A DNA stretch of 64,000 nucleotides, from assembly GCA_001771135.1 (NCBI GenBank), contig MESW01000002.1, forward strand, positions 69,315 through 133,314, in the 5' to 3' direction. A program made the position numbers and the translations under genes. This stretch comes from a candidate division CPR3 bacterium GWF2_35_18 (lineage in GTDB: Bacteria > Patescibacteriota > CPR3 > GWF2-35-18). This document shows, one piece after another, positions 4,237 through 40,223 of the stretch; positions within the stretch are counted from its first letter, which is position 1; every line of letters begins with the position of its first letter. The notes under the pieces are model-generated. The model did not search any database, was not told where the DNA came from, and saw only the letters and a program-made list of their open reading frames with translations.

Positions 4237-5472
4237 TTAGAGCATATTTGTATAGTATTGCTCAGTAAGATCTGCTATTTTATCCCAATGGTGAGTTGCG
4301 AATTCTTTAGGATGTAGATTTTTGGGATTATGATGATAAAGATTTTCATAAAACTCATCAGTCTTTTCTACTATTTGATCCCAAGAATACTTCTTTCGTA
4401 CATATAGACGAGCTTTTTCTCCGGTTTCTTTAATTAATTTAGGTTTGTGTAATAAGTTCACAAGTTTCTCTTTTAAATCGTCCACATTTCCTACTTTAAA
4501 TGAAAAACCAAAATCAGAAAGCGGCTCTAGGTTTTCAGGGATGTTTGAAGCAAGTACGCAATTGCTGTAGGCCATGGCTTCCAGAACTGCAATAGGAAGA
4601 CCTTCTGCTGCTGAAGGATGAACATATAGGTAAGTATTAGAAAAAAGCTCCGCGAGAGTTTCTCCCGTTTGAAATCCTGTAAAGATGATATTGGGATCTT
4701 CCTTTGCAAGGTTCTTTAAGTAATCCTCATATTGTCCACTTCCATCTGCTTTTCCTCCGACAATGACTAGTTTTGGATTTGTTTTATTTGGTTTTGGAAA
4801 TAAGAGTTGATATGCCTTGATCAAAGTATGAATATTTTTATGTTTTACTAATCTTGCTACTGTTAAGATATATTTATCTTTTTCTAAACCCCAATCTTTA
4901 ATGTTTTTAGCTTTTTCTTTAGTGAATAGGGGAACTCCATTTGGAATATAGGTAATCTTTTTGTGGTATTTTTCTCTTACATATTCTTGAATAGTTTTAC
5001 TAACGGCTATTGTTCCATTGGGTATTTTGACGCAGACATGTTCTCCAAATTTTAAATAGCTACGGGCTAAAAAACTCCATTTTTGGTGTTCGTAATCTTT
5101 GCAATGGAATGTTGCTACAATCCGACTTTTGGTTTTTAGTAACTTAGGGATAAATAGTAGGGAAGAAGGACCAATTCCATGATAATGTATTACATCAGCC
5201 TTTCGAGTTAAAACATTCATTGTTGCCGTAAAAGTACTTGTTATCGCATCAAGGTTTTTAGTATTTATTGAAGGATTATTTAATAATTTTATCTTTTGAT
5301 ATGTTTTGGGAACTTTTTTGTTTTGAAAAACCAAGTTTTGATACCAAGGGCGGCAGTACACATAGACTTCATGTCCTTTTTTAGCAAGTCGAGAAGCTAG
5401 TTGCTCAACATGATGTTCTACGCCTCCGTAGGAAGCAGGAATTCCCTTTTGTCCAATAAAATAGATTCGCAT
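4237..5472 (-). CDS. Glycosyltransferase (DUF1972-like + GT4), tandem paralog of 2753-3949
   Basis: 411 aa. N-terminus MRIYFIGQKGIPASYGGVEHHVEQL. Collinear similarity to the previous protein throughout. Confidence 0.8.
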   Translation of the reverse strand: MRIYFIGQKGIPASYGGVEHHVEQLASRLAKKGHEVYVYCRPWYQNLVFQNKKVPKTYQKIKLLNNPSINTKNLDAITSTFTATMNVLTRKADVIHYHGIGPSSLLFIPKLLKTKSRIVATFHCKDYEHQKWSFLARSYLKFGEHVCVKIPNGTIAVSKTIQEYVREKYHKKITYIPNGVPLFTKEKAKNIKDWGLEKDKYILTVARLVKHKNIHTLIKAYQLLFPKPNKTNPKLVIVGGKADGSGQYEDYLKNLAKEDPNIIFTGFQTGETLAELFSNTYLYVHPSAAEGLPIAVLEAMAYSNCVLASNIPENLEPLSDFGFSFKVGNVDDLKEKLVNLLHKPKLIKETGEKARLYVRKKYSWDQIVEKTDEFYENLYHHNPKNLHPKEFATHHWDKIADLTEQYYTNML

Positions 5473-5492
5473 GGGATATAAATGATTACTTC

Positions 5493-6848
5493 TTAATTTT
5501 TCGTTTTGTGTTCACTGTATCGGTAATAATGACTCTTTTTATCACCATTCGGTTTTTTGTTATTGAGAATTGTCCCAATAATCTCTCCACCTACCTTTTT
5601 GATTGCTTCAACGGCCTTTTGTGCATTAGTACGAGTGGTCTTCCCGGATTCAACTACTAATATAGCTCCATCAACCATGGAAGAAATAATTGCGGCATCA
5701 GTAATTAAACCAATTGGTGGGGTGTCGAAAATAATAGTATGGAATTTAGCTTCCTTTAGTCTTTCAATTAAATGATACATTTTGGTTGAACCTAACCATT
5801 CTGCGGGATTAGGGAGAAAAGATCCAGAGGTAATTAAAGATAATCCATTTATTTGAGTTGATTCCCAAATGGTTTTAGGGAGATCATTTTTGGTTAAGAC
5901 ATCAGTTAATCCAAAGTTATTTTCAACTTTAAAAATATCATGTTGCGTAGGACGGTGTAAATCGGCATCAATTAAAATGGTTTTATAACCAGCTTGAGCC
6001 ATAATTACCGCTAGATTAGCCGTAATTTGCGACTTTCCTTCAGATGGTCCGGAAGAGGTAACAACAAATGCTTTTGTGGGTTTGTCAGGTTGTGAAAATT
6101 GTACATTAGTTCTTATTTCTCTAAAGGATTCCACAATTGGGTCATGTGGATCGGTTGTGGTTATTAAATTTCCTGCACGACGGTGGACTTCTTTGATATA
6201 AGAAACCGTTCCCAGATGAGGCAGGTTTAGATATTCTTTTATATCAAATTCATCTTTGAATGTATCATCCAAATATTCAATCAGGAAAATGATTCCAATG
6301 ATTGAAATGAAACTGAGAATAAAAGCTAAAGAGATTGAGAGTGCTTTTTTAGGGGAATCTGGTTTTTCTGATGGAAAAGCCTTTTCTACAGTTGCAATTG
6401 TATTATAACTTTGTTTATCACCTTGAAGCTTTATTACCTCTTCAGAAAATTTTTGAGCGATAGTATCAGCAATCTGTGCCGCTATTTCAGCATCTTTTGC
6501 TTTTACGGATATTGTGATAAGTTGAGTGTCTCTAACTAATTGGACGTCAACTTTTTTTAGAAGTTCTTCATAATCTGTATCAAGATTTACTTCTTTTATT
6601 ACAGACTCTAATACGGTTCTTTTAGAAATAACCTCAGCATATGTTTTTGCTAGTCTTTCGGATGTCATAATATCGTTTAGGTTAATTGTTTCGGTACTAG
6701 CAAGGTTAACCATGACAGTTGTAGAAGATTTGTAGGTAGGAGGAATCATGAAAACTAAAGCTGTTGTTGTCGCCGTAGCGAAAATCACAAATAGGACGAT
6801 GATGAATAAATATCGTTTAATGATAAAGAGGTAATTTTTAATATCCAT
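5493..6848 (-). CDS. Fused Wzc-like polysaccharide co-polymerase / bacterial tyrosine (BY) autokinase
   Basis: 451 aa. Two TM segments flank a Wzz-like periplasmic domain. Cytoplasmic Walker A VVTSSGPSEGKS, Walker A' ILIDADLHRP, DTPP, Walker B, and a C-terminal Tyr cluster (SHYYRYSEH). Confidence 0.8.
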   Translation of the reverse strand: MDIKNYLFIIKRYLFIIVLFVIFATATTTALVFMIPPTYKSSTTVMVNLASTETINLNDIMTSERLAKTYAEVISKRTVLESVIKEVNLDTDYEELLKKVDVQLVRDTQLITISVKAKDAEIAAQIADTIAQKFSEEVIKLQGDKQSYNTIATVEKAFPSEKPDSPKKALSISLAFILSFISIIGIIFLIEYLDDTFKDEFDIKEYLNLPHLGTVSYIKEVHRRAGNLITTTDPHDPIVESFREIRTNVQFSQPDKPTKAFVVTSSGPSEGKSQITANLAVIMAQAGYKTILIDADLHRPTQHDIFKVENNFGLTDVLTKNDLPKTIWESTQINGLSLITSGSFLPNPAEWLGSTKMYHLIERLKEAKFHTIIFDTPPIGLITDAAIISSMVDGAILVVESGKTTRTNAQKAVEAIKKVGGEIIGTILNNKKPNGDKKSHYYRYSEHKTKN

Positions 6849-6863
6849 GGCAGTAAAATGTTT

Positions 6864-7571
6864 TTAAAATGAACTATCATTTAAAATATTAGCACAGTTA
6901 GTTTGAGACAGCAATTGCCATTTTGTTAAGCCAATCAAAGATTTAATTTTAGACTCAACTTTGGTTAACGGATAAAAACGGTTTTGACTATTATGAGAAT
7001 CACTTCCAATTAGATCATAGTAACCATTTTTTAAGAATAATTCAGCCTGGTTTGTAATTTTTCTGTTATTTTCGATTAAAGAAACACTAGTTAATTGAAA
7101 GAGAACACCGAGTGATTTAATTTTTTTCACCATATCTAAATTGTATAAACAAGGATACCTTTCTGGATGGGCTAAAATTGGGCGAAGGTTATTTTTTAAA
7201 AGATATTCAAGCTGTGAGATTGTTTCTGTGGTTATGTCCGGATAAACATCTACAAGTAGATATCTGGAATTATTCAGGCTTTGAAATTGTTCTAATGGTT
7301 TTTGTTCAAAAATATAATCAGTTAATCTTACCTCTGATCCAGGATATACTTTAATATCCCATTTAAGTTCTTTTAGAGCATTGTTCAAGATCTTTATTTT
7401 ATCTTGAATTTCCTTTTTTGTGGGTTCCCAATAACCTTTCCAGAAGTGTGGTGTTGTAATAATATTTTTATAACCCGTTTGAACAAAAGCTTTTGCTAGA
7501 CTTAAACTTTCTGGAAAGTCTTGCGGGCCATCATCTATTTGAGGCAGTATGTGAACGTGAGTTTCAATCAT
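6864..7571 (-). CDS. CpsB/YwqE-type PHP-family protein-tyrosine phosphatase
   Basis: 235 aa. N-terminus MIETHVHILPQIDDGP..TPHF and downstream His/Asp metal ligands typical of Mn-dependent CpsB phosphatases. Confidence 0.8.
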   Translation of the reverse strand: MIETHVHILPQIDDGPQDFPESLSLAKAFVQTGYKNIITTPHFWKGYWEPTKKEIQDKIKILNNALKELKWDIKVYPGSEVRLTDYIFEQKPLEQFQSLNNSRYLLVDVYPDITTETISQLEYLLKNNLRPILAHPERYPCLYNLDMVKKIKSLGVLFQLTSVSLIENNRKITNQAELFLKNGYYDLIGSDSHNSQNRFYPLTKVESKIKSLIGLTKWQLLSQTNCANILNDSSF

Positions 7572-7587: not shown

Positions 7588-8268
7588 CTATTCTTCCATT
7601 TTCGCAGTTATAATCAGTCTTTTCAAGCTTGTTCCAGGAGGATAGCAGGTTTGAAGAGTGATTACCGGTTCGGCAAAATCTCTTGTTAAAGGTTCGATAT
7701 TAGTTGGATCAACAATGTCTTTACTATCAACGATATAGTTGTATCTGGTTCCTTTATAAAAGGTGACAATAGAATCTCCTTTTTCTAGTTGATGGAGTAG
7801 AGTAAAGACAGCATTGTATTTACTAATATTAAGAGGATCAACAGTAGAATGTGCAAATAGATATGCGTTTCCGATTTGCCCGGGGTATTTAGTTCCTTTT
7901 GCATGAGCGACTCCATTTTCCAGTGCTTGCCAATAACCTTCTCTAGTTGAAATATCAATATCAGGCTGAAAGTCAGTATTTAAATTGATCTTTTCGATTA
8001 TTATTCCAAATTCGGTTGATACCGGAGTTACTGACAAGGGTTTTTCTATTGGAATTTTGACAGAATTTGTTGACTCATCGGAGTTTAAATTTGATGATTC
8101 TTGATTATTACTTTTGAATAAGCGATGTAGCTGGTACTCAATTTCGGGTTTAATAATTGGGAAAAATATAAGGAAAAGATAGATAACACCACTAATTATT
8201 AAGAAGTTTGAGATATAAATAAGATATTTTCGATTTAGTTTTAGTTTTGGTTTTTTTTGTTTATTCAT
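7588..8268 (-). CDS. Sortase-family transpeptidase
   Basis: 226 aa. Has an N-terminal TM anchor, conserved His (GNAYLFAHS), catalytic TLxTC (ITLQTCYPP) and downstream Arg (KRLIITA). Confidence 0.7.
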   Translation of the reverse strand: MNKQKKPKLKLNRKYLIYISNFLIISGVIYLFLIFFPIIKPEIEYQLHRLFKSNNQESSNLNSDESTNSVKIPIEKPLSVTPVSTEFGIIIEKINLNTDFQPDIDISTREGYWQALENGVAHAKGTKYPGQIGNAYLFAHSTVDPLNISKYNAVFTLLHQLEKGDSIVTFYKGTRYNYIVDSKDIVDPTNIEPLTRDFAEPVITLQTCYPPGTSLKRLIITAKMEE

Positions 8269-8432: not shown

Positions 8433-8620
8433 CAAAAAATGAGCTAGCATTATTCTATTAATTTATGTTATACCCAAATAACTCTAAAATGGGTAATACT
8501 CAAATGTATTTGTTGTAAATCTGAGTTTTTTAATATAAATGATTTTTATAGATTAGTAGAAGAATAAAAATCAAGTGGTGCATAGCTTAAATGGGAGAGG
8601 ACTATGTTTATATTGCAAGT

Positions 8621-8660
8621 GGGTGCATAGATTAAGTGGTAGAGCACCAATCTTATATGG
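8621..8660 (+). pseudogene. Truncated 5'-half copy of tRNA-Ile(UAU) (acceptor/D-arm/anticodon arm only)
   Basis: GGGTGCATAGATTAAGTGGTAGAGCACCAATCTTATA closely matches the 5' 37 nt of the intact tRNA at 8666, then diverges. A more degenerate copy lies at about 8577-8600. Confidence 0.5.
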
Positions 8661-8665
8661 TGACT

Positions 8666-8740
8666 GGGCGCATAGCTCAGTGGTAGAGCACCAATCTTAT
8701 AAGTTGGCCGTCCGTGGTTCGAATCCACGTGCGCCCAGCC
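8666..8740 (+). tRNA. tRNA-Ile, anticodon UAU (reads AUA)
   Basis: Manual fold: acceptor GGGCGCA/TGCGCCC, D-arm GCTC-AGTGGTA-GAGC, anticodon stem CCAAT/GTTGG with loop CTTATAA (anticodon TAT), T-arm CGTGG-TTCGAAT-CCACG. Confidence 0.75.
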
Positions 8741-8767
8741 ACCATTAATTTAGAATAAATTTTAAAT

Positions 8768-8806
8768 ATAAGTTGGCCGTCCGTGGTTCGAATCCACGTG
8801 CGCCCA
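8768..8806 (+). repeat. Exact 39-nt direct repeat of the 3' half of tRNA-Ile(UAU) (anticodon stem to acceptor end); att-like remnant
   Basis: ATAAGTTGGCCGTCCGTGGTTCGAATCCACGTGCGCCCA at 8768-8806 is identical to 8699-8737. Confidence 0.7.
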
Positions 8807-8928
8807 CTTGCAATTCACTGAATGTTTTTTATCTCAGTATTCTTTTTTAATTTCAACATATCAACATATATTGAATTCAGATAGTAATTAATATACTATG
8901 GATATAGTTAAGCTTTTCTTTTCTAATT

Positions 8929-11900
8929 ATGAAAAAATTATCTAGACATTTTTGCTTTTTACTACTTTCTTTTAGTTTATTATTCAACTCAAGCTTTTTT
9001 CAAGCCCCTAATCTTACCTATGCAATTAATCAAACTAATACTCCGGCAACCGTTGTATTAGGACAGAACGGTTTTGATGCCTGTGATAGAGCTCCTAATT
9101 ATGGAGATATGAGAAGAGGTTTTAGTACACCTATACAAACCTTGATTGTGAATAATAAATTGATGGTTTCGGATTATGCTAATAGCAGAATATTTATTTA
9201 CAATACTATACCGGATTCTTATTTAGATGTACCAGATGTTGTGATTGGACAAAATAATCTATGTAATAATCTGATAAATAAATATCAAGGTCCTACAATA
9301 GTAGCGGCAGATACTTTATATTATCCATATTATATTTATTCTGATGGGACAAAACTCTTCGTAGCCGATTATTTGAATAATCGAGTATTAATTTACAACG
9401 AGATTCCAACTTCTAATAATGCTTCGGCAGATGTTGTAATTGGGCAACCAAACATGACCAGTAATACGGCTAATAATGGTGGTCTCGGGGCAAATACACT
9501 TTATAGACCTCTAGGAGTTTATTCTGATAACACCAAACTTTATATTGCTGATACAAGTAATAATCGAGTATTAGTTTACAATGAAATTCCAACTTCTAAT
9601 AATGCTTCAGCAGATGTTGTAATTGGGCAACCAAACATGACCAGTAATACGGCTAATAATGGTGGTAGAGCTGCTAATCGTTTAAATGCTCCTTATGCTA
9701 TAACTGTTAATAATGGGAAAATCTATATAAGTGATTTAAGTAATAATCGTGTATTGATTTTTAATTCTATTCCAACTTCAAATGATGCTTCTGCAGATAT
9801 TGTTGTCGGTCAAACTAACATGACGAATGGAGCTGCAAATCAAGGCGTAGCTGTAGCTTCAAACACCTTATCTTCGCCTATTTATACTCAAATAGCGAAT
9901 AATAAATTATATATTACTGATCGTGGAAATCACCGAGTATTAGTTTATAATAGTATTCCCATTGTAAATAATACTTCCGCCGATCTAGTGATAGGGCAAC
10001 CAAATATGACTAGTAACACGGCCAATAACGGTGGAATAAGTTCACAAACCCTTAATAATCCTACTGGTTTATCAGTTACTACGAATAAAATGATCATCAC
10101 GGATTCAAGTAATCATCGATTATTAATATTTAATACTTTACCCTTAACCAATAATCCGGAAGCAGATATTGTTATTGGCCAGAAAGATTTTACGCATAAT
10201 TTATCTTATATGGGAGCTGTTAATTCACAATCTCTATCGGCCGGTTGGAATACTGCTTTTTCCGATGGACAGAGATTATATGTCGTTGATTATGCTAACA
10301 ATCGAGTATTAATTTATAACTCAATTCCTACAGATAGTAATACTCCAGCCGATGTCGTAATTGGTCAACCGGACATGACCAGTAATATTGCAAATAATGG
10401 TGGATTAAGTGCAAAATCATTGAATCATCCCGTAGAAGTTTTTGCTTATCAAAATAAACTATATATATCAGATTACTCTAATAGTAGAGTATTAATATTT
10501 AATACTATCCCTTCAACTAATTTTGCCGAAGCTGATATTGTAATAGGGCAGCCAAATATGACCAGTAATACTGCTAATAACGGCGGCCTTGGGGCAAATA
10601 CTCTTTATTATCCAGGTTCTACGTATACTAATGGAGAAAAATTAATTATCGCCGATTATAATAATCATCGAGTTTTAATATATAACACAATCCCTACCAA
10701 TAATAATGCAAGTGCTGATGTAGTAGTCGGTCAACCAAATATGACAACAAGATCAATAAATTATGGAGGTTTAAGTGCTAGCTCTCTATATTATCCATAT
10801 GTTGTATCCTCAAACGGTAGTAATTTAGTAGTTACCGATTATAGTAATAGTAGAATACTTATTTATAACTCTATTCCTACATCGAATCTAAGTAGTGCTG
10901 ATGTAGTAGTTGGTCAACCAAATATGACTAGTAATGGATGTAATAATGGTGGAATAAATGCAAATACTGTGTGTAATCCATGGTATGCTTATACAGATGG
11001 TATTAGATTATTTATTGCCGATACTGCCAACTATCGAATACTTATTTATAATTCTATACCTACAAATAACTTTACAAACGCAGATATTCTAATCGGACAA
11101 CTTGATTTTACGCATAAGGATATTAATCAGAATGGAGATGCGTCGCAATATACTTTAACTGCTCCCTATTCAGTAATTACTGATAATCATAATTTAATAG
11201 TATATGATGCAATGAATTATCGTGTACTCTTCTACCCTCTTGGCCCTCAAAACACGGGTGTTACCACAGACAGCTATAGTAATTCTCAGAACATTGATTT
11301 AACCCTCTCTGCAGATGATGCAAAAGAGATGATGATCTCTGAAGATAGTGGATTTACCGGAGTCTCATGGGAATCATTCTCCACTTCCAAAGATTTTACC
11401 TTATCTACCATAGAAGGTAGTAAGACTGTCTATGTAAAGATGAGAGATTATGCTAATTACGAAGGAGATACTTTATCTACTACACTAACCTATGACGCTA
11501 CCTCTCCCACGGGGAGTCTTACCATCAACTCTGGAGCTACCACTACTAATAGCAGGGGAGTCACACTCACTCTTTCAGCTGACGATGCTCTTTCTGGAGT
11601 AGTCTCGATGATGATTTCTGAAGATAGTGGGTTTAATGGAGCATCCTGGGAAAATTATGATACCTCTAAGGATTGGATCCTTACCTCTGGAGATGGAATT
11701 AAGACAGTCTATGCTAAGTATAAGGATGTTGCTGGGAATATTTCTGAGAGAGTCTCTGGAAACATCGAGATGGATACTAATATCCCCGAAGGAGAGATTA
11801 TTATCGTTAGTCCTACGGAGAATGCTTATGTAAACAGTGAAACAGTCACTCTGACTTTAGAAGGAACCGATGAATTAACAGAGGTGTTTGAGATGATGAT

Positions 11901-12510
11901 CTCTGAAGATCCAAACTTCATCGGAGCTTCATGGGAAACATATACAACAACCAAAGAGTGGACATTTTCTGAGGGAGATGGAATTAAGGTAATATATATA
12001 AAGTATCGTGACTCCGCTCAGAATGAAAGCTTAATATACAGCTCCAGTATCATACTAGATACAGTAACCACTATAGATCTTACTAAGCTGGGAGGTAATA
12101 CCTTTAATACAGATATAACTGATTGGGAGATAGAAGATAATAAACCTAGCTTTGAAGGAACAGGGGAGGTAGATGCAGAGGTTGTAGTTACCATCAATTC
12201 TGATTCCATAATAGGAACTTCCATTGTAGATAGTGGTGGGAATTGGATCTGTACTCCAGAAACAGAGATTCCTGTTGGAAAGCATGAGGTAACGATAACC
12301 TCTACCGATCTAGCATCTAATACCGATACTCTCTCATTCAATCTTTCCGTACTTGGAGCTACTGATACACAAGAACAAATAGAAGGACCTGAAGAGCTAC
12401 CTAATACCGGAGTACAAACAATCATTATCTTCTTCATGGTAATAGCACTATTTTGGACAGCTACAAATCTGAGAATCATTGATAAACTTAGAAGTTTTAT
12501 GAAGAGATAA
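8929..12510 (+). CDS. Large LPXTG-anchored surface protein: signal peptide, about 14 NHL-type beta-propeller repeats, 3 tandem ~115-aa Ig-like repeats, Ig-like stalk, LPNTG sortase signal
   Basis: 1193 aa. N-terminal signal peptide. Repeated N(N/H)RVL(I/V)YN..IP..N..AD(V/I)V(I/V)GQPNMTSNTANNGG units. Three MMISED..GF.G.SWE.Y.T.K.W....GDGIKTVY.KY.D repeats. C-terminal LPNTG, then a hydrophobic segment and a basic tail (RIIDKLRSFMKR). Confidence 0.85.
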   Translation: MKKLSRHFCFLLLSFSLLFNSSFFQAPNLTYAINQTNTPATVVLGQNGFDACDRAPNYGDMRRGFSTPIQTLIVNNKLMVSDYANSRIFIYNTIPDSYLDVPDVVIGQNNLCNNLINKYQGPTIVAADTLYYPYYIYSDGTKLFVADYLNNRVLIYNEIPTSNNASADVVIGQPNMTSNTANNGGLGANTLYRPLGVYSDNTKLYIADTSNNRVLVYNEIPTSNNASADVVIGQPNMTSNTANNGGRAANRLNAPYAITVNNGKIYISDLSNNRVLIFNSIPTSNDASADIVVGQTNMTNGAANQGVAVASNTLSSPIYTQIANNKLYITDRGNHRVLVYNSIPIVNNTSADLVIGQPNMTSNTANNGGISSQTLNNPTGLSVTTNKMIITDSSNHRLLIFNTLPLTNNPEADIVIGQKDFTHNLSYMGAVNSQSLSAGWNTAFSDGQRLYVVDYANNRVLIYNSIPTDSNTPADVVIGQPDMTSNIANNGGLSAKSLNHPVEVFAYQNKLYISDYSNSRVLIFNTIPSTNFAEADIVIGQPNMTSNTANNGGLGANTLYYPGSTYTNGEKLIIADYNNHRVLIYNTIPTNNNASADVVVGQPNMTTRSINYGGLSASSLYYPYVVSSNGSNLVVTDYSNSRILIYNSIPTSNLSSADVVVGQPNMTSNGCNNGGINANTVCNPWYAYTDGIRLFIADTANYRILIYNSIPTNNFTNADILIGQLDFTHKDINQNGDASQYTLTAPYSVITDNHNLIVYDAMNYRVLFYPLGPQNTGVTTDSYSNSQNIDLTLSADDAKEMMISEDSGFTGVSWESFSTSKDFTLSTIEGSKTVYVKMRDYANYEGDTLSTTLTYDATSPTGSLTINSGATTTNSRGVTLTLSADDALSGVVSMMISEDSGFNGASWENYDTSKDWILTSGDGIKTVYAKYKDVAGNISERVSGNIEMDTNIPEGEIIIVSPTENAYVNSETVTLTLEGTDELTEVFEMMISEDPNFIGASWETYTTTKEWTFSEGDGIKVIYIKYRDSAQNESLIYSSSIILDTVTTIDLTKLGGNTFNTDITDWEIEDNKPSFEGTGEVDAEVVVTINSDSIIGTSIVDSGGNWICTPETEIPVGKHEVTITSTDLASNTDTLSFNLSVLGATDTQEQIEGPEELPNTGVQTIIIFFMVIALFWTATNLRIIDKLRSFMKR
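9397..9668 (+). repeat. Near-identical intragenic tandem repeat (unit about 183 bp, 61 codons) inside the LPXTG gene
   Basis: 9397-9485 and 9580-9668 are about 97% identical at DNA level. More diverged copies with the same period occur through about 10950. Confidence 0.6.
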
Positions 12511-12524: not shown

Positions 12525-13397
12525 TTAGAGTTCTTCGAGTTTGAAGGTTTCTTTGTAAGCAGTTCTAACATGTTCTAAGTATTTTTCTGTAGTTGATAAT
12601 CTTTTGTGTCCTACGATTTTTGAGATCAAAATGAGGCTAGTTCCTTTCATGAGGTGATGGGCGATAAAGGTATGTCGAAGGTCATTTACTTTTGCGTTTT
12701 TTACTCCCGCCTTACTAAAATATCGATCGATTGCAGATCGAATATTTCTGATTAATAGCGGTTTTCCAGTTTTAGTCACAAAAAGAGTTTCTTCTTTTGT
12801 GTTTGGCCTGATTTTTAAATATTCAGATATTGATTTAATTACAGATTTATTTAAAGGAACATTACGGCCTTCGTGTCCATGAGATGGTTGAATTATTAGC
12901 TCTCCGCTATTTTTTGTTTTATCAATAATTACATCTTCTACTCGAAGATTTCTCAATTCTCCAATACGAATACCTGTTTGTAAAAGAATTTCTACAATGG
13001 CAGCTATTCTTGGATCCTCACGACAAGAGTCTCTTAAAGCTCGATATTCAATTTTTGATAGAATTCTGGGAGCTGGAGTATCAAACTTGGGATGCGATAT
13101 TAAATTTGCAGGATTGTCAGTGATATATTCATTTAGTTCAAGAAAGCGGAAAAAAGTCTTAGTGCTATTTGTCTTTCGGGAGATACTTTTAGTGGTATAA
13201 TTTTCTTTTTCAAGTTTTGCCATGAAGGCTTGAAGATCGTTTTTGTTAATATGAGTTGTTCTAGTTTTACTTAAATTTTCTAGAAATTCTATAAGTTGTT
13301 CTATATCTTTACCATATGCAAGAATAGTCGCTTGAGAGCGGTCTTTTTCCGTAAGATGTTCTACAAATTTTTTGTGAGCTTCTTTCAATTCGATCAT
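12525..13397 (-). CDS. Tyrosine site-specific recombinase, XerC/XerD family (possible integrase). Start trimmed to the internal Met of the 12525-13514 ORF.
   Basis: C-terminus LRHTFIAHHLMKGTSLILISKIVGHKRLSTTEKYLEH matches the R..H..R..Y catalytic signature. The N-terminal SAM-like core-binding domain begins MIELKEAHKKFVEHL. The first 39 codons of the ORF look non-coding and overlap the neighbouring ORF. Confidence 0.8.
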   Translation of the reverse strand: MIELKEAHKKFVEHLTEKDRSQATILAYGKDIEQLIEFLENLSKTRTTHINKNDLQAFMAKLEKENYTTKSISRKTNSTKTFFRFLELNEYITDNPANLISHPKFDTPAPRILSKIEYRALRDSCREDPRIAAIVEILLQTGIRIGELRNLRVEDVIIDKTKNSGELIIQPSHGHEGRNVPLNKSVIKSISEYLKIRPNTKEETLFVTKTGKPLLIRNIRSAIDRYFSKAGVKNAKVNDLRHTFIAHHLMKGTSLILISKIVGHKRLSTTEKYLEHVRTAYKETFKLEEL

Positions 13398-16634: not shown

Positions 16635-17567
16635 ATGAACGATTCTAAGATAGTTATTTTTGACGCACATGCTTTGATACATCGAGCTTATCATGCTTTA
16701 CCACCCCTTACAACTTCGGAAGGGATTCCAATAAATGCTGTCTACGGATTTGTGAAAATAGTTTTAAATATATTAGAAACAATGTCTCCCAATTATGTTG
16801 CGGTGGCTTTTGATACAAGAACTCCTACTTTTAGACATGTGGACTACAGTGAATATAAAGCAAATCGTCCTCCTTCTCCAGATGATTTGAAAATACAATT
16901 TCCAATTGTTAAACAGATAGTTGAAGACCTTGGATTATCTTCTTTTGAAGTTGAAGGTTATGAAGCTGATGACGTTATCGGGGCTTTAGTTAATAAATTT
17001 GAAAAAAGTGTTTCCAACTCTGAAATATTTATAGTTACTGGAGATTTTGATGCTACTCAGCTTGTAAATGATCATATAAAGATTTTTACTCTTGGGAAAA
17101 GAATTGAAAATACTTCTATTTGGTCTAAAAAAGATTTGATGGAAAAATTCCAACTTTCTTATCCAAAACAGATTATCGATTATAAAGCTTTAAGAGGGGA
17201 TCCGTCGGACAATATTCCTGGCGTTAAAGGTATTGGGGAGAAGACAGCCTCAATATTATTAAAAAACTTTAAGAACCTAGAGACAATTTATGAGAATATT
17301 GATAAAGTAGAGTCAAAATATCGTCAAAAGTTAGTAGATGATAGGACAAATGCCTTTCTATCAAAGAAATTAGCGACTATTATCAGTGATGTGCCACTAT
17401 CTTTTAAAGTAGATGAATGTAAATATCATAGTTTTGATAGAGAAAAGATAGTACCTGTTTTGGAAAAATACGAATTTCGAAGTTTAATAAAAAAATTCAC
17501 GAGAAAAGATATCTCAAAAACAGTACAAAAAAAAGACGAAAATGAACAACTCTCCTTTATCGAATAA
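16635..17567 (+). CDS. 5'-3' exonuclease (FEN-like; N-terminal domain of DNA polymerase I) as a separate ORF
   Basis: 310 aa. MNDSKIVIFDAHALIHRAYHAL..., GYEADDVIG, and H3TH region (GIGEKTA). Confidence 0.85.
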   Translation: MNDSKIVIFDAHALIHRAYHALPPLTTSEGIPINAVYGFVKIVLNILETMSPNYVAVAFDTRTPTFRHVDYSEYKANRPPSPDDLKIQFPIVKQIVEDLGLSSFEVEGYEADDVIGALVNKFEKSVSNSEIFIVTGDFDATQLVNDHIKIFTLGKRIENTSIWSKKDLMEKFQLSYPKQIIDYKALRGDPSDNIPGVKGIGEKTASILLKNFKNLETIYENIDKVESKYRQKLVDDRTNAFLSKKLATIISDVPLSFKVDECKYHSFDREKIVPVLEKYEFRSLIKKFTRKDISKTVQKKDENEQLSFIE

Positions 17568-18855
17568 AAACAACAGAGAATCAGTAAGTATTTCAGACGA
17601 ATTACATCCATACAATGTTGATAATATAGATGGTCAGATACAAAACCTGTTAACAACTATGAGCAAAGTGGGATTTCTTATAGATGTTGAGGTTATAAAT
17701 AATCTAGAAGTGGAGGTTGAGGATCTTCTTAAAAAGTTATCTGTTAGGATATTTCATCATATCGGATATGATATAAACTTAAATTCGTCAAAGCAAATTG
17801 CAAAGTTATTATATGAAGATTTAGAGCTTCCGTCAGGTAAAAAGAAAAAAACCGGTTTTTCCACTGATGAAGTGACATTGAAAAAAATTAAAAAGCTACA
17901 TCCAATAATTCCCTTAATATTAGAATATAGAACGGTTTACAAATTAAAAAGTACCTACTTAGAATCATTAAGATGTCGTATTGAGGAAGATGGAAGGATT
18001 CATTCGACGTTTCTACTTGATGTGGCAAGTACTGGGAGGATAGTTAGCAGAGACCCAAATTTACAAAATATTCCGATCAGAGGTAGTTGGGGAGAAAAAA
18101 TTCGAAAAGCTTTTATCGTTCCTTGCGAGAAGATATTAATTGCGATTGATTATTCTCAAATAGATCTGCGAGTATTAACACATTTTTCTAAAGAATCAAA
18201 ATTAATAGAAGCTTTCAAGCAAAATCAAGATATTCATCTCTCAACAGCAATGGAGATTTTTAATAAAAAAGCTTCGGATATTACTGCTGATGAACGTCGA
18301 ATAGCAAAAACAGTGAATTTTGGCATTATTTATGGAATTAGTCCTCACGGACTTTCTGAGAGTTTAGAAATTAATCAAAAACAAGCTGCTTATTTTATCA
18401 AAACCTATTTAGATAAATATCCTCAGGTAAAACAGTATCTTGATCTAAGTCGACAGAATGCTTTAAAAAATGGTTATACGGAAACACTTGGTGGAGAAAA
18501 AAGATATATTCCAGAGTTAAAAAGTAAGAATCATTTTATTCGAAGTTCTGGAGAGAGAATGGCTATTAACTATCCTATTCAGGGAAGTTCCGCGGAGATA
18601 ATCAAATTGGCAATGTTAGATATTGATTGTGAATTTGTTAGACGAAAATTATCGTCTTCAAAGATGATTTTACAAATTCATGATGAATTAGTCTTTGAAG
18701 TAGAGAATGAGGAAAAAGATGCTGTAATAAAAATCGTAAAAGAAAAAATGGAAAATGTAGTAAAACTCATTATTCCGTTGAAAGTTAGTATTAAAGAAGG
18801 TGTCAATTGGGGAGAGATGACAGAAATTTTAAAATTGGAGATGGCAATAAAATGA
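17542..18855 (+). CDS. polA: DNA polymerase I polymerase domain only (no 3'-5' exonuclease domain)
   Basis: 437 aa. Family-A motifs: motif A DYSQIDLRVL, motif B RRIAKTVNFGIIYG, motif C QIHDELVFE. Overlaps the upstream exonuclease ORF by 26 nt in a different frame. Confidence 0.85.
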   Translation: MNNSPLSNKNNRESVSISDELHPYNVDNIDGQIQNLLTTMSKVGFLIDVEVINNLEVEVEDLLKKLSVRIFHHIGYDINLNSSKQIAKLLYEDLELPSGKKKKTGFSTDEVTLKKIKKLHPIIPLILEYRTVYKLKSTYLESLRCRIEEDGRIHSTFLLDVASTGRIVSRDPNLQNIPIRGSWGEKIRKAFIVPCEKILIAIDYSQIDLRVLTHFSKESKLIEAFKQNQDIHLSTAMEIFNKKASDITADERRIAKTVNFGIIYGISPHGLSESLEINQKQAAYFIKTYLDKYPQVKQYLDLSRQNALKNGYTETLGGEKRYIPELKSKNHFIRSSGERMAINYPIQGSSAEIIKLAMLDIDCEFVRRKLSSSKMILQIHDELVFEVENEEKDAVIKIVKEKMENVVKLIIPLKVSIKEGVNWGEMTEILKLEMAIK

Positions 18856-23209: not shown

Positions 23210-24997
23210 ATGCTCTTTCAAGATCTTGCTAATTATTTTGAAAAACTAGAAAAAACTACATCTCGTAATGAAATTACGAAAATTTTGAGTGAACTTTTCA
23301 AAAATCTTTCCGTAGAAGAGGTGAATGTTGTTTGTTATCTGTCGTTGGGGAAATTGAAGCCATCATATGAATCTTTAGAATTTAATCTTGCCGAAAAGAT
23401 GATAGCCGAACTTTTATCTCGAATTAGTCAAAAGACAAAGGAAGAAATAAATAAAGATTTTAATGTTATGGGAGATTGGGGTGATTTGGCGGCTAACTTG
23501 ATTAAAAGAAAAACGAGTGATCTGACAATCAAAGATGTTTATAAAGAGCTTCTTTCTTTAGCCAAAATTGAGGGTTATGGATCTCAAGAAGTAAAGATAA
23601 ATAAGCTTTTATCCTTATTTTCGCATATAAATAGTGCATCTGCTAAATATGTTTTACGTGTTATTCTAAAGAAGTTAAGACTCGGTTTCTCGGATATGAC
23701 CATTCTTGATGCGTTGTCTTTTATGGAAGTCGGAGACAAGAGTCTAAGAAAAGAGATCGAAGAATCATACAACACAGTTGCGGATATTGGAAAAGTTGCT
23801 TCGTATTTTAAGGCTAAAGGTTTAAAAGGTTTAAAAGAGCTATCTGTTACTCCGGGAATACCTGTAATTCCTTCTGCGGCAGAAAGGCTTCCGAGTGCGG
23901 AAAAGATTTTTGAAAAGATTGGAGTTTGTTTGTTAGAACCTAAAATCGATGGTTTTCGGCTCCAAGTACACTTAAATAAATTAAAAACTGAGATTTCAGA
24001 TGATAACCCTCTTTTTGCAAAAGAAGAGCCTTTTATACGATTCTTTTCTCGAAATTTAGAAGATATGACGGGAATGTTTCCGGAGATTAAAGACGTCGTT
24101 TCTAAAATTGATTGTGAATCTTTGATTATAGAGGGAGAAGCAGTCGCTTTTAATCATAAAAATAATCGGTTTTTACCTTTTCAATTAACCATATCGCGTA
24201 AAAGAAAGTATGACATTCAGGAAAAATCTACAGAGCTACCTTTGACTCTATTTGTATTTGATTTGCTTTATTTAAATGGAAAAAGCTATATTAATGAGTC
24301 TCTAATTGAAAGAAGAAAAATATTAGCAGAACTCATTCCAGAAAATGTAAATAGTCTGCAACTAATTCCACAACAGAAGGCAGTTTCGGTGCAAGACATC
24401 TCCAAATATTTTCTCGAAAAAAAGAAAGCCGGTTTAGAAGGAATAATGGCAAAAGTTCCTGATTCTTATTATGAAGCTGGATCAAGAGGATTCCATTGGA
24501 TTAAGTATAAAAGAGAAGAAAGTCAAGGCCTTGAGGATAGTATTGATGTTGTTGTTTTAGGTTATTATTATGGTCAGGGAAAAAGGACAAGTTTCGGTAT
24601 TGGCGCTTTATTGGTTGGAGTTTATAATAAGAAAGGCGAGATTTTTGAAAGTATCGCTAAAATTGGTACAGGAATTAAAGATGAAGAGTTTATAACTATT
24701 AAAAAGGATTGTGATTTATTAAAAAGAAAACTCCCTCCCAAAAATGTGATTGTCCCTAAAGCTTTAATTCCAGATGTTTGGGTGGAGCCTCAAATTGTTG
24801 CTGTTATCCTTTCTGATGAGATAACAAGATCGCCGCTACATGCAGCTGGTGCAAGTAAAGATGGGAAAGGTTATGCTTTACGTTTTCCACGTCTTACTAC
24901 TTGGCAAAGAAAAGATAAGAGCATTTATGATATAACAACTGTATCAGAAATCGAAAGACTTTATCAAAATCAAAATAGGAAATCTTCTAAAAATTAA
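23210..24997 (+). CDS. ATP-dependent DNA ligase
   Basis: 595 aa. Motif I LEPKIDGFR (KxDG), adenylation and OB-fold motifs. Confidence 0.85.
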   Translation: MLFQDLANYFEKLEKTTSRNEITKILSELFKNLSVEEVNVVCYLSLGKLKPSYESLEFNLAEKMIAELLSRISQKTKEEINKDFNVMGDWGDLAANLIKRKTSDLTIKDVYKELLSLAKIEGYGSQEVKINKLLSLFSHINSASAKYVLRVILKKLRLGFSDMTILDALSFMEVGDKSLRKEIEESYNTVADIGKVASYFKAKGLKGLKELSVTPGIPVIPSAAERLPSAEKIFEKIGVCLLEPKIDGFRLQVHLNKLKTEISDDNPLFAKEEPFIRFFSRNLEDMTGMFPEIKDVVSKIDCESLIIEGEAVAFNHKNNRFLPFQLTISRKRKYDIQEKSTELPLTLFVFDLLYLNGKSYINESLIERRKILAELIPENVNSLQLIPQQKAVSVQDISKYFLEKKKAGLEGIMAKVPDSYYEAGSRGFHWIKYKREESQGLEDSIDVVVLGYYYGQGKRTSFGIGALLVGVYNKKGEIFESIAKIGTGIKDEEFITIKKDCDLLKRKLPPKNVIVPKALIPDVWVEPQIVAVILSDEITRSPLHAAGASKDGKGYALRFPRLTTWQRKDKSIYDITTVSEIERLYQNQNRKSSKN

Positions 24998-34573: not shown

Positions 34574-34774
34574 TACCCATGCTTCTCGTATGAGAAGTTT
34601 CTTTTTTCGTTCTTTAACATTCAAGAAGTGGTAGGAATTTAGGCGAAGTGTTGTCTAAATTCTTAGTACAAGACTTCGTCAATTTTTTTTGTAATCATTG
34701 TTAAACCAAGTAATTGGTTTAACTCGTTTACTCTTTATGATATTTCCTAAATTTATTTAGGATTTGTCATATTT

Positions 34775-36276
<1,502 letters not shown>

Positions 36277-36375
36277 TAAGGAGTATCACTCCAACTTCAC
36301 GACTGGAGTCTTTATAGGTGTATGCTACAACCATAAAGGTAGCAGTTCCTACCACTTTTTGAAAGTTAAAGATAC

Positions 36376-36406
36376 AAAAAACGGAGCTTGTTGCTCCGTT
36401 TTTTTG
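36376..36406 (+). terminator. Rho-independent terminator-like hairpin downstream of 16S
   Basis: ACGGAGC-ttgtt-GCTCCGT followed by T7. Confidence 0.6.
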
Positions 36407-36459
36407 TTTATGATATATTCAATTCGTTTAAAAATTGGAGTTTCGCAGCTTGTTAATTT

Positions 36460-36534
36460 GGCGCGGTAGCCAAGTGGAAAGGCAGGAGTCTGCAAAACTC
36501 CTACGCGTCGGTTCGATTCCGACCCGCGCCTCCA
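36460..36534 (+). tRNA. tRNA-Cys (GCA)
   Basis: Acceptor GGCGCGG/CCGCGCC, anticodon loop CTGCAAA, T-loop TTCGATT, CCA encoded. Confidence 0.85.
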
Positions 36535-36545
36535 AAGATAAATAG

Positions 36546-36622
36546 GGGCGATTAGCTCAGGTGGTTAGAGCGCCAAACTGATAATTTGGAGGTCCATGGT
36601 TCGAGTCCATGATCGCCCACCA
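36546..36622 (+). tRNA. tRNA-Ile (GAU)
   Basis: GGGCGAT...anticodon loop CTGATAA...TTCGAGT...ATCGCCC-A-CCA. Confidence 0.85.
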
Positions 36623-36627
36623 TAGAA

Positions 36628-36657
36628 TAAAAACTACGTTATTAACGTAGTTTTTTT
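36628..36657 (+). terminator. Rho-independent terminator after tRNA-Ile
   Basis: ACTACGTT-att-AACGTAGT followed by T7. Confidence 0.65.
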
Positions 36658-36678
36658 CGTTTGTGTTATACTTTTTTT

Positions 36679-37140
36679 ATGAATAAAAAGATTCAAATTC
36701 CAGGAATTGATTATATCGGTATAACGACTCCTTTCTACTGTAATGATGGTAAGGGTAATTTTCTTTTACATCGCAGAAGTAAAAATTGCCGTGATGAACA
36801 GAGAAGATGGGATTTGGGTTCGGGTCAATTAGAGTTTGGGTTAACTCCAGAGCAAAACGTTCTTAAAGAGGTTTTTGAAGAATATGGTTGTAGTGGAACT
36901 ATTCAAAGTCAACTTCCGCCACACTCTATTTTTCGAAAGCATCAAGGGGTAGATACTCACTGGTTGGCAATTCCTTTTTTTGTACAAGTTGATCCACAAA
37001 AAGTAAAGATTAGTGAACCCACTAAAATTGATGAGATTGCCTGGTTTACTTTAGATAATTTACCAACTCCTTTACATTCTGGTTTTTCCTATACTCTAAA
37101 GACTTACAAACAGTATTTTGAAAAGTATAAAAAGCGATAA
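36679..37140 (+). CDS. NUDIX-like hydrolase (hypothetical), located between 16S and 23S
   Basis: Nudix-like GSGQLEFGLTPEQNVLKEVFEEYGC. ATG at 36679, whereas the track start 36661 is TTG. Confidence 0.6.
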   Translation: MNKKIQIPGIDYIGITTPFYCNDGKGNFLLHRRSKNCRDEQRRWDLGSGQLEFGLTPEQNVLKEVFEEYGCSGTIQSQLPPHSIFRKHQGVDTHWLAIPFFVQVDPQKVKISEPTKIDEIAWFTLDNLPTPLHSGFSYTLKTYKQYFEKYKKR

Positions 37141-37707
37141 TTATACTAATGTAGCAGTCTCTATTATCTGGTTGCCAAAACGCCAAAAATGGGCATTCGT
37201 TTTTCCTTTTTTTATTTTGATTTTCCGACTCTTTTTCTCTATAGTTAAATATTGGAGATTAACGACATTTAATGTCTTATTATTACTATAATTTCAGTTC
37301 TAAAAAACTCCGCTCAAAAAGGAGAAAAAGATACTTTATTTCGGCTCTTTACTCATTTTTTACAATTTTCTTTTTATTTTCAATATTTTTACCCTATTTT
37401 AAATACAATAACGTAGCTACATATGTAAGTGGAACAACTTCTACAAATACGACCTAGGACTTGTGAAATTAGTCGACGTTAAACCTCTTTAGCTTAGTAA
37501 TCCGACGATAATTACCAATAAATACGGATACTATAGTTTCTAGTGAAAAAGGGGAAGAATCAGATTGTGATTGAGTCAAAAAAGATGAAAAGACTAAAGC
37601 AGTCTATCGATCTGAAGTGATTACAGTATAGACTAACAATGGACATCTTGGAAAAAATATCAAAATCTAGTATTATTATAGTAATAATCAAAGGAGGTGA
37701 TAAATAA

Positions 37708-38217
37708 ATGGAAGAAGTAAAAACAGAAACTCCCGTAACCACAACAGCTTATGAACATGCTGGTTTTGGTGTTAGATTGGTTGCGGCGATTATAGACGGA
37801 ATTTTAATCAGCGTTGTTACTGGAATTATAAACGGAATTTTTGGAACTGCTTTAGGTGCAGGAACTTCATTAATGAGTACCGATGTGATGACAGATGAAG
37901 CTGCTGCTGGTCTTATCGCCACGGCAATTGGAGGATCATTTATTCTCATGTTTGTAAATATGGCGATCTCCTGGGGTTATTATATTGTTATGACCGGAGC
38001 AAAAGGAGCGACAATTGGAAAAATGATTATGAAGCTTGAAGTCGTCGATGAAAATTATCAAAAAATTTCTTATGGTAAAGCGGCTTTGCGCGAAATTGTC
38101 GGGAAATTTATTTCCAGTCTAGTATTTTGTTTAGGATATATATGGGTTTTATTTGATGATAAAAAACAAGGTTGGCACGATAAAATTGCCAAAACTTACG
38201 TCATCAAAAAAAGTTAA
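37708..38217 (+). CDS. RDD-family membrane protein
   Basis: RDD motif: R..A.IID.. (GVRLVAAIIDGIL), later D and D (WHDKIA). RBS AAAGGAGGTGA. Confidence 0.8.
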   Translation: MEEVKTETPVTTTAYEHAGFGVRLVAAIIDGILISVVTGIINGIFGTALGAGTSLMSTDVMTDEAAAGLIATAIGGSFILMFVNMAISWGYYIVMTGAKGATIGKMIMKLEVVDENYQKISYGKAALREIVGKFISSLVFCLGYIWVLFDDKKQGWHDKIAKTYVIKKS

Positions 38218-38280
38218 GGTTTAAAGAGAGTGGGTAAGTAGATTCATCTACTTACCCCTCCTTTAATAAAAAGAGGAAAA

Positions 38281-39255
38281 ATGAACATCGATTTTCGCAA
38301 AATAATTAAACGATCTTGGGAAATTATTAAAAAGAATAAAATACTCTGGATTTTAGGAATGCTTCTTGGTGGAGCTAGTGTGGGAAGTGGCGGAGGGGGG
38401 AGTGGATATGACTTTGACAGTTCTGATGTCGATAAAATCAAAAACTCCGATTTTGTAGATGGGGATCAACTAACTTCAGCGATAGATTCTTTTTTAACTT
38501 CTCTTTCTGAAGTTATTGCCAAAATTCCACCATATATTTGGATACTTATCATAGTGACTTTAATTAGCGTTATCATCCTCGGAATTATTGTAAAAATCTA
38601 TTTGAATAACTGGGCAGAGGGAGCTGTTATTGGTCTTGTGAATGGAGCAGAAAAAGGAGAGGAAATTAGTTTTCGTAAAGGCGCAATTTATGGAATTCGT
38701 TTTGCTAAGAGGTTAGTTTTAATTTCAATAGTTCCCGGTTTAATCTATTTTTTAATTTTAATCGCTTTTGGTTTGCTTATTGTTTTCAGCCTGCTTTTCC
38801 CCGTACCGGTACTGAATATTATCTTAGCAATTATTTTTGGCTTCATTCTAATATTTTTTATGCTTATAGGATCTTTATTTTTATCTCTGCTAAAGATAAT
38901 TTCTATCCGAATCGTGGTTGTCGAAGATAAAGATTATCTAGAAGCATATAAGGAAGCTTTTACTTTTGTGAAAAAAGCCTTCCTTGAAATTATCATTCAA
39001 GGAGTTATCAATTATAGTTTTGGTTGTGGTTTTGGTTGTCTCTATTTGATTTTTTTAATCGTAATTATTGGAATTATTATTTTAGGATTTTTTATTCACG
39101 TTGGGTTAGGTTTACCACTTGCTCTTTTAGGTTTACTTATTTTAATTGTTAGTGGAGTATTCGTAGGAGCTTTTAATTCCTTTAAATCTGCAAACTGGAC
39201 GCTACTGTACAAACAGGTTAGAGAAAAACAGAAGGAGGGGAACAATGCAAAGTAG
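38281..39255 (+). CDS. Polytopic membrane protein with N-terminal Gly-rich/acidic segment (hypothetical)
   Basis: 324 aa. GGASVGSGGGGSGYDFDSSD, then about 6 TM helices. Confidence 0.5.
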   Translation: MNIDFRKIIKRSWEIIKKNKILWILGMLLGGASVGSGGGGSGYDFDSSDVDKIKNSDFVDGDQLTSAIDSFLTSLSEVIAKIPPYIWILIIVTLISVIILGIIVKIYLNNWAEGAVIGLVNGAEKGEEISFRKGAIYGIRFAKRLVLISIVPGLIYFLILIAFGLLIVFSLLFPVPVLNIILAIIFGFILIFFMLIGSLFLSLLKIISIRIVVVEDKDYLEAYKEAFTFVKKAFLEIIIQGVINYSFGCGFGCLYLIFLIVIIGIIILGFFIHVGLGLPLALLGLLILIVSGVFVGAFNSFKSANWTLLYKQVREKQKEGNNAK

Positions 39256-39796
39256 TATTAAGCAATCTCAATATCAAAACGCAGGGTTTATTGTTCGGTT
39301 TTTGGCTTTTCTCGTAGACCATTTGATTCTTTGGCTCCCTTTTTTATTAATTAGTCTTTTTATCACTTTAGGTAGTAGTTCTACATCAGATCTTTTAGTG
39401 AAATTAGGAATATTAACCCTTTATTATCTTATTATTCAGGAAATTTTATGGCTTTTCTATCAAACACTAACGACTTCCTATTGGGGCGGGTCTCTGGGAA
39501 AAGAGGCTTTTAACCTCACGATTCTGAACGAAAAAGGAGAAAAACTAAGTTTGAGGGATTCACTTTTTCGTTACGTAATTGGTTATACGGTTTCAGGACT
39601 AGTTTTTGGCTTAGGGTTTTTATGGATTATCAAAGATGATCAAATGAGAGCTTGGCATGATCTGCTTATTGGTTCAAAAGTTGTTGTTAAGGAAAAAGAC
39701 TACATTTTGGGAGTTTTATCTCTTTTGGGATTAGTGCTTGTTTCTAGTATTTTTATCTTTATTTTGGTATTTAAAATCGTCTCTTTCATGAACTAG
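39245..39796 (+). CDS. RDD-family membrane protein (second copy)
   Basis: GFIVRFLAFLVDHLILW...AWHDLLIG. Overlaps the previous gene by 11 nt. Confidence 0.75.
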   Translation: MQSSIKQSQYQNAGFIVRFLAFLVDHLILWLPFLLISLFITLGSSSTSDLLVKLGILTLYYLIIQEILWLFYQTLTTSYWGGSLGKEAFNLTILNEKGEKLSLRDSLFRYVIGYTVSGLVFGLGFLWIIKDDQMRAWHDLLIGSKVVVKEKDYILGVLSLLGLVLVSSIFIFILVFKIVSFMN

Positions 39797-39805
39797 TTTT
39801 AGTAT

Positions 39806-40086: not shown

Positions 40087-40223
40087 AAATTCAATTGCGT
40101 AAAAAATTATAAACTTTAAGTACTAAATACTAAATGTTTAGGATTTAGAAATTATAATTTTTAAAACCTTTGTTCTTTAAAAACTGGATAGAATTTCAAC
40201 ATCTTCGTATTTTAGAATTTTAA

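Follow-up and report, generated by a model that had tools for sequence, protein, structure and literature searches.

A secreted double NHL-propeller protein with an LPXTG-type sorting signal encoded beside a sortase gene in a candidate division CPR3 bacterium

We describe here a gene for a large surface protein carried on a 64 kb stretch of DNA from a candidate division CPR3 bacterium (Patescibacteria, also called the candidate phyla radiation, CPR); this whole stretch is called the window throughout, and all counts given for the window refer to these 64 kb. The gene is a single open reading frame (ORF) in the ORF list of the window, at 8929–12510 on the plus strand, and encodes 1193 amino acids. 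Our reading, to which we assign a probability of roughly 0.6, is that its product is a secreted surface protein of CPR3, probably with a covalent link to the cell wall, and that its position next to a sortase gene stems from a lineage-specific insertion. The protein is a standard architecture made from known parts, and joins the known kinds as an LPXTG surface protein with NHL propellers. The gene and the parts that it encodes are as follows:

8929–12510, plus strand: complete surface-protein gene; its product is listed publicly as a hypothetical protein from candidate division CPR3 (e.g., KKP69798.1)
8929–9024, plus strand: signal-peptide-like N-terminus (residues 1–32), consisting of MKKLSR, a hydrophobic core and TYA/INQ (sequence inspection)
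9040–10155, plus strand: predicted NHL beta-propeller 1 (residues 38–409), six blades of 61–64 residues (blade parsing, AlphaFold, Foldseek)
10156–11238, plus strand: predicted NHL beta-propeller 2 (residues 410–770), six blades of 55–62 residues (blade parsing, blade model, full-length structural model)
11278–12114, plus strand: three related immunoglobulin (Ig)-like (beta-sandwich) repeats of ~94 residues (residues 784–1062; DNA repeats, identity, structural model)
12118–12345, plus strand: Big_13 bacterial Ig-like domain (residues 1064–1139; Pfam PF19077, 42–43 bits vs a cut-off of 27)
12397–12507, plus strand: C-terminal sorting signal, consisting of LPNTG, the hydrophobic segment VQTIIIFFMVIALFWTA and the basic tail TNLRIIDKLRSFMKR (sequence)

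The exact 1193-residue sequence is public from groundwater CPR3, under the names hypothetical protein or "Bacterial Ig-like domain-containing protein", and 18 contigs, assembled independently, carry the gene for this same protein, in a context that is constant throughout. An assembly error is thus unlikely, and neither the sorting signal nor the number of repeats is an artefact of a single assembly. The ORF proposed in the first-pass annotation, which was made from the letters of the window, is therefore real, and the architecture claimed there (signal peptide, NHL propellers, Ig-like stalk and LPXTG-type sorting signal) is recovered by Pfam, by parsing of the blades, by AlphaFold and in the C-terminal sequence. 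In the window, NHL blades were found in this protein only (hidden Markov model, HMM, search of the ORFs), as were LPXTG-type C-termini of comparable quality (scan of all ORFs), and a scan for promoters and terminators gave counts at or below chance level.

The head of the protein matches the Pfam NHL family (PF01436) with 116 bits, against a cut-off of 20. Parsing anchored on the motif NxR[VIL]L[IV][YF]N divides it into 12 blade units of 55–64 residues each (typically ~61), and an HMM built from the blades likewise counts 12 domains, such that the ~14 NHL repeats first proposed come down to 12. The blades are 29–72% identical to one another, with a consensus of ~ADVVIGQPNMTSNTANNGGxxANTLxxPxGVxxDGxKLYIADxxNNRVLIYNxIPTxNN, and their loops, of the form GQPNMTSNTANNGG, are long and strongly conserved; noncanonical loops are found in blades 1, 7 and 12, which suggests a 6 + 6 organization.

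AlphaFold modeling of the full-length protein, based on a 36-sequence alignment (predicted local distance difference test, pLDDT, 88.8; predicted template modeling score, pTM, 0.72), yields 12 four-stranded blades with pLDDT >90, then all-beta domains and finally a helix at the C-terminus. Foldseek searches with this model returned only multidomain matches of low template modeling score (TM-score), the top ones being the Bacteroides periplasmic sensors BT4663/BT4673 together with LRP6, megalin and ROS1 (global TM-score 0.1–0.27), and a single-propeller model was needed. The corresponding model of residues 36–421 alone (pLDDT 92.7, pTM 0.91) matches the six-bladed NHL domains of Thin, TRIM71, TRIM2, Pizza6 and PknD with target-normalized TM-scores of 0.75–0.82; the query-normalized values are lower (0.5–0.6), consistent with the greater length of the model (386 residues vs about 250–290). 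AlphaFold and Foldseek therefore indicate two tandem six-bladed NHL propellers, in keeping with the earlier expectation that structure prediction would give one or two propellers of six or seven blades. For propeller 2, we infer closure at six blades from the full-length model, from propeller 1 and from the loops of blades 1, 7 and 12.

The head is followed by a stalk of four Ig-like domains, namely the three repeats and Big_13. The repeats appear as direct repeats in the DNA, with spacings of 279 and 285 nt and a period of 93–95 residues, are 43–46% identical in pairwise comparison, and are modeled as an all-beta region with pLDDT values of 72–95. The three Ig-like repeats of ~115 residues originally described are thus correct in number, but their period is shorter, and they are followed by a fourth Ig-like domain. 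By sequence, the matches of the three repeats to Big_13 (≤19 bits on the repeats), to Big_7 and to the OmpL47-type domain all stay below threshold; similarity of the stalk repeats to the Leptospira OmpL47-type beta-barrel domain (NF047446) and to the Ca-tandemer and Blp2 Ig-like adhesin repeats falls short of the curated cut-off in each case (37 vs 40, 33.7 vs 50 and 37 vs 750).

The two ends of the protein carry the evidence for export and anchoring. By inspection, the N-terminus has the makings of a Sec signal peptide, with a hydrophobic core of 13 residues; AlphaFold places a helix at residues 2–19, with low confidence over residues 18–28, and a similar N-terminus is found in the relatives P0004 and P0005. 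The C-terminus reads EELPNTG-VQTIIIFFMVIALFWTA-TNLRIIDKLRSFMKR, with LPNTG at nucleotides 12397–12411, followed by 17 hydrophobic residues and then by a 15-residue tail with five lysine or arginine residues, and AlphaFold models a terminal helix over residues 1170–1192. An LPXTG motif no more than about 35 residues from the C-terminus, then a hydrophobic segment and a tail of positive charge, as expected by sequence of a wall-anchored protein, are thus all present, and this ending, which had been proposed from the outset, has the same sequence on all 18 contigs. Furthermore, E-L-P-[ND]-T-G lies directly before the hydrophobic segment in four related sequences (the window protein, P0004, P0005 and a C-terminal paralogue fragment at L002:1–140), while the preceding linker and the first following residues vary; the closest relatives (P0004, P0005 and the L002 fragment) have the motif in the form LPDTG. 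That the motif is constant amid variable flanks argues for selection on it. Weighing these features against the contrary observations given further below, we put the chance of covalent wall anchoring through LPNTG at about two in three. A search for other proteins sharing this anchor, with the last 127 residues as the query, gave no matches; a single-sequence metagenome scan with the C-terminal region likewise gave none, and an alignment-based rescan succeeded.

The genes and features that surround the surface-protein gene are as follows:

4237–7571, minus strand: conserved cluster downstream of the sortase gene, with a CpsB phosphatase (6864–7571), a Wzz/tyrosine-kinase-like protein (5493–6848) and a GT4 glycosyltransferase (4237–5472) (Pfam)
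7588–8268, minus strand: sortase, 226 residues, with an N-terminal membrane anchor, divergent from the NHL gene (Pfam Sortase, 73.8 bits vs a cut-off of 26.6)
8577–8814, plus strand: tRNA-Ile(UAU) gene (8665–8741) nested in partial tRNA-Ile copies, at the left edge of the insertion (ARAGORN, Rfam, repeats)
12525–13397, minus strand: Xer-like tyrosine recombinase, 290 residues, convergent with the NHL gene (Pfam Phage_integrase and SAM-like domain)

The catalytic His (FAHS), Cys (TLQTC) and Arg of the sortase align with those of solved class C sortases and do not vary in 38 homologues. The enzyme scores below every NCBIfam class cut-off, the best being class C with 56 bits vs 160, and classes D, E and F lower still. 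The possibility that the NHL protein is a pilin substrate of a class C sortase was considered and rejected, as the class C similarity is weak and subthreshold, and the protein is a multidomain one of 1193 residues. The sortase belongs to a family spread across CPR lineages, in agreement with a published survey that reported a sortase family in more than half of CPR genomes (PMC6744442); while a single-sequence sortase scan of species genomes gave no close relative, an alignment-based rescan succeeded.

The sortase gene is the first gene of the conserved CpsB–Wzz/kinase–GT4 cluster, with the same order after the sortase at five other loci (L003, L004, L005, L006 and L166). Its conserved partners are polysaccharide-synthesis genes, and we note that the tie between a sortase and a capsule/exopolysaccharide-type cluster is unusual. 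The sortase behaves like a housekeeping enzyme with scattered substrates, and is as such still a plausible anchoring enzyme for the NHL protein. Related sortase loci encode small LPATG (L008) and LPSTG (L035) proteins nearby, such that this sortase family does co-occur with LPXTG-type substrates.

The sortase start codon lies 660 bp from the start of the NHL gene, with the two genes divergent and the tRNA-Ile(UAU) gene in the spacer between them; at the other end, the recombinase stop codon (the 290-residue gene call being taken from L167) lies 14 bp from the NHL stop codon. At the loci with the nearest sortase relatives (59–63% identity; L003 and L004), the order is FtsH, two tRNA-Met, DivIC, Xer-like recombinase, tRNA-Ile(UAU), sortase, CpsB, Wzz/kinase, GT4 and GT4. 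Here, the recombinase orthologues (74–79% identity) directly adjoin the tRNA-Ile and the sortase, with no gene between recombinase and tRNA and with the NHL gene absent from the block, whereas in the window the NHL gene sits inside this block, between tRNA and recombinase. The tRNA-Ile(UAU)–sortase pair without the NHL gene is also found at the more distant loci L006, L008 and L035. Across 80 CPR sortase loci, NHL homologues occur within 8 kb of the sortase in none and a clear LPXTG ORF lies near it in two (the LPATG and LPSTG cases given above); in turn, 80 metagenomic loci that encode relatives of the stalk or of the NHL protein were all without a sortase-family ORF in the 10 kb around.

Since the block of the relatives lacks the NHL gene, and the NHL relatives lack a sortase, the comparison of gene order argues that the NHL gene was inserted between tRNA-Ile(UAU) and the Xer gene in this lineage, and that its position beside the sortase is not an operon link. 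There is thus no conserved gene pair of sortase and substrate, and a biochemical link between the two is plausible but unsupported by gene order. The first-pass annotation had placed the gene directly downstream of its probable sortase; a functional pair of genes does not agree with their divergence, with an intervening tRNA or with the absence of any such pairing from both sets of 80 loci. It had also described the only sortase gene in the window as ending 660 bp upstream: the HMM search does find this one sortase-family ORF only, but on the minus strand, and it is the start codon that lies 660 bp away.

Some further observations concern the surroundings of the sortase. The divergent tRNA-Ile(UAU) upstream of it is found at five loci (L003, L004, L006, L008 and L035) whose sortases are only 41–61% identical to that of the window, which makes this an unexpectedly old synteny; tRNA-Ile with the UAU anticodon is uncommon in bacteria. 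At L008:3491–7393, beyond the tRNA-Ile/sortase pair, there are genes for a 990-residue Pro/Thr/Glu-repeat protein with a C-terminal transmembrane anchor and for the LPATG protein (232 residues), such that different surface-protein genes occupy this neighborhood in different lineages.

Nested tRNA-Ile sequences are the most unusual feature of this region. The tRNA-Ile(UAU) gene that is intact has inverted repeats of 8–9 nt on either side (TGGTGACT / AGCCACCA) and lies within an outer tRNA-Ile(UAU) that is split after anticodon-loop position 37, with its 5' half at 8621–8657 and its 3' half at 8771–8806; the joined outer halves fold as a tRNA-Ile(UAU) in ARAGORN, and the outer unit is in turn flanked by a perfect 9-nt inverted repeat (ATTGCAAGT / ACTTGCAAT). 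A further, degenerate 5' half precedes the outer unit (8577–8611), and TATA is duplicated at the junctions. The nest region is identical in independent assemblies, and the next conserved gene by it is the Xer-like tyrosine recombinase. The same locus holds a deeper nest at L003:4074–4982 (reverse strand), with several 5' halves in series and then several 3' halves, and a single plain tRNA at L004:1624–1841; nesting thus varies between related genomes. Literature searches on nested tRNA genes gave nothing relevant.

These features bring to mind a bolder reading, in which the NHL–LPXTG gene would be a movable host-attachment cassette with diversifying heads that landed in a recombination hot spot formed by tRNA-Ile(UAU) and the tyrosine recombinase and marked by the tRNA-in-tRNA nesting, in which a small unit with the intact tRNA-Ile(UAU) would have entered the anticodon loop of an older copy. 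We consider this quite unlikely, and note that the NHL gene itself is flanked by no repeat. An island bounded by duplicated tRNA 3' ends was also considered for the NHL gene and rejected in that form, as the tRNA 3' half occurs only twice, with both copies upstream of the gene. If true, the cassette reading would suggest that surface-protein genes in CPR are reshuffled by a self-targeting tRNA element or integration system; we know of no description of a system of this kind in CPR.

The double propeller is a widespread module: of the 8000 candidates that were scored, more than 6000 proteins reached E ≤ 1e-5, and they come from CPR lineages, Margulisbacteria, Elusimicrobia, Proteobacteria and others, with blade residues that are invariant across phyla. 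The C-terminal modules of these homologues comprise a transmembrane segment with a basic tail, a PF13860-type domain (which we take to be secretion-sorting-like), a peptidoglycan-binding domain, LPXTG, or none of these, and this variety fits an extracellular module that is shown by whichever anchor suits the envelope. The closest NHL homologues are P0004 (56% identity) and P0005 (51%), both of 1195 residues and both ending in LPDTG, whose genes lie in the interval from YceG to RF1 and have no visible sortase gene nearby. Their propeller regions are 49% identical to each other (58% at the DNA level), and their stalk and anchor 92% identical (94% at the DNA level). A constant stalk with a divergent head suggests that either the stalk undergoes gene conversion or the head diversifies. 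This YceG–RF1 locus lies outside the window and carries one copy (L088) or two tandem copies (L002); the LPDTG paralogues there were seen at L001:10001–13588, L002:1–3911 and L088:1946–5572, with contigs often broken at the repeat.

We also observed two variants of the window protein among database fragments from a single sequencing run (SRR3989339), P0002 and P0003 (corresponding to window positions 8929–11604), which are identical to it save that one 61-residue blade is deleted (P0002) or exactly duplicated (P0003). These may be blade copy-number alleles or repeat misassemblies, and the 12-blade form is the one found on the 18 contigs. Literature searches on NHL proteins in CPR gave nothing relevant.

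Among known systems, the closest in layout are the Gram-positive LPXTG adhesins of the MSCRAMM (microbial surface components recognizing adhesive matrix molecules) type, with which the protein shares a signal peptide, an N-terminal binding region, an Ig-like stalk, an LPXTG–hydrophobic–basic end and a sortase in the genome. It differs from these in its CPR host and in a head of two six-bladed NHL propellers, where MSCRAMM-type adhesins have IgG-like or other adhesin folds, as well as in the unmatched curated LPXTG model and in a sortase outside classes A–F. The sensor domain of Mycobacterium tuberculosis PknD (1RWI/1RWL), with which the Pizza6 designs co-cluster, is likewise an extracellular bacterial six-bladed NHL propeller (TM-score 0.75–0.82); however, PknD has one propeller with blades of ~42 residues and a transmembrane helix leading to a kinase, whereas the present protein has two propellers with blades of ~61 residues, long conserved loops and no signaling domain. 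The Methanosarcina mazei surface-layer fragment 1L0Q (YVTN propeller and PKD domains) also combines a beta-propeller with Ig-like domains in a surface protein, but it is archaeal, seven-bladed, of the YVTN family and without LPXTG, and the match is weak (query-normalized TM-score 0.47). Finally, BT4663/BT4673 and the YWTD propellers of LRP6, megalin and ROS1 share tandem propellers with small beta domains after or between them, yet they belong to other propeller families (seven-bladed Reg_prop, or YWTD with EGF) and are signaling or endocytic receptors.

We propose that the protein would be exported via the Sec pathway and then retained in the membrane by its C-terminal segment, after which the membrane-anchored sortase (7588–8268, the sole candidate visible) would cleave LPNT/G and link the Thr to a peptidoglycan precursor. 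The Ig-like stalk would then project the double propeller off the wall, where the repeated loops of the blades could bind a ligand multivalently, the most likely ligands being glycans and the surface proteins of partner cells or matrix. All 12 blades share one conserved motif, which suggests many equivalent sites, an arrangement that resembles propeller lectins, and divergent heads on a constant stalk are as expected of a binding protein under diversification. An adhesin or host-attachment role, as put forward in the first-pass annotation, is thus plausible, from the architecture and from the divergence of head versus stalk among the paralogues only.

Several observations weigh against wall anchoring by this sortase. 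Most CPR homologues carry a plain transmembrane segment with a basic tail and no LPXTG (6 of 11 NHL-bearing relatives in one set, and many in another), such that a simple membrane anchor would work too; the curated LPXTG-anchor model TIGR01167 (NCBIfam) is unmatched even at E ≤ 1, both with the whole protein and with its last 145 residues; the 15-residue basic tail is unusually long; and the sortase fits none of classes A–F. Furthermore, the annotated parts of the window contain no peptidoglycan synthesis genes, and our view is of 64 kb of the genome, outside which further sortases or paralogues may exist. The first two of these points, together with an AlphaFold helix that runs continuously over residues 1170–1192, would also be expected if this were a plain membrane-anchored surface protein, in which the hydrophobic segment and basic tail form a permanent stop-transfer anchor and LPNTG is not processed by a sortase. 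We nevertheless consider this alternative unlikely, because ELP[ND]TG keeps its exact canonical position in four related sequences despite differing flanks, and because a sortase is present that is predicted from its His, Cys and Arg to be catalytically intact.

Two alternatives concern what the propellers do. The protein is large and repetitive, and its architecture is like that of the Methanosarcina surface-layer protein (1L0Q, at rank 47 in Foldseek), as it might be for a surface-layer (S-layer) or major envelope lattice protein whose propeller and Ig modules self-assemble instead of binding a foreign ligand. Pfam and NCBIfam scans, however, found neither an SLH domain nor any other domain for S-layer anchoring, related genomes lack the gene at this syntenic slot, its presence is patchy, and both the variable copy number and paralogue heads that are only 49% identical are unexpected for a core lattice protein, all of which makes this very unlikely. 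An extracellular enzyme or sensor could also be envisaged, as lyases and lactonases occur among the NHL and SMP-30-type propellers, and propellers serve as sensor domains in PknD and in the hybrid two-component sensors of Bacteroides; the fold matches to the PknD sensor domain and to the double-propeller sensor domains of BT4663/BT4673 would fit with this. However, only 15 residues follow the membrane segment, leaving no cytoplasmic signaling domain, one conserved motif recurs in all 12 blades in place of one distinct active site, and no enzyme family was matched in Pfam or NCBIfam, such that we regard an enzyme or sensor as highly improbable.

Elsewhere in the window, we note an interrupted rRNA operon (34773–43444), with ~3.9 kb between the 16S (34773–36275) and 23S (40213–43191) genes that holds tRNA-Cys, tRNA-Ile(GAU), four ORFs (one NUDIX, two of the RDD family and one without a family) and tRNA-Ala. 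The functions of DNA polymerase I are also split, with separate genes for the 5'–3' exonuclease and the polymerase domain (16635–18855 and 23210–24997), and an ATP-dependent DNA ligase with DNA_ligase_A domains is encoded near them.

Very few attachment proteins are known from CPR bacteria, which are believed to live in attachment to other cells. A double propeller on a stalk, anchored to the wall as we propose, is a reasonable candidate for such an attachment protein, and the divergence of the heads of the tandem paralogues helps this case. As the family is very large, uncharacterized and present in many phyla, identification of its ligand would annotate thousands of proteins.

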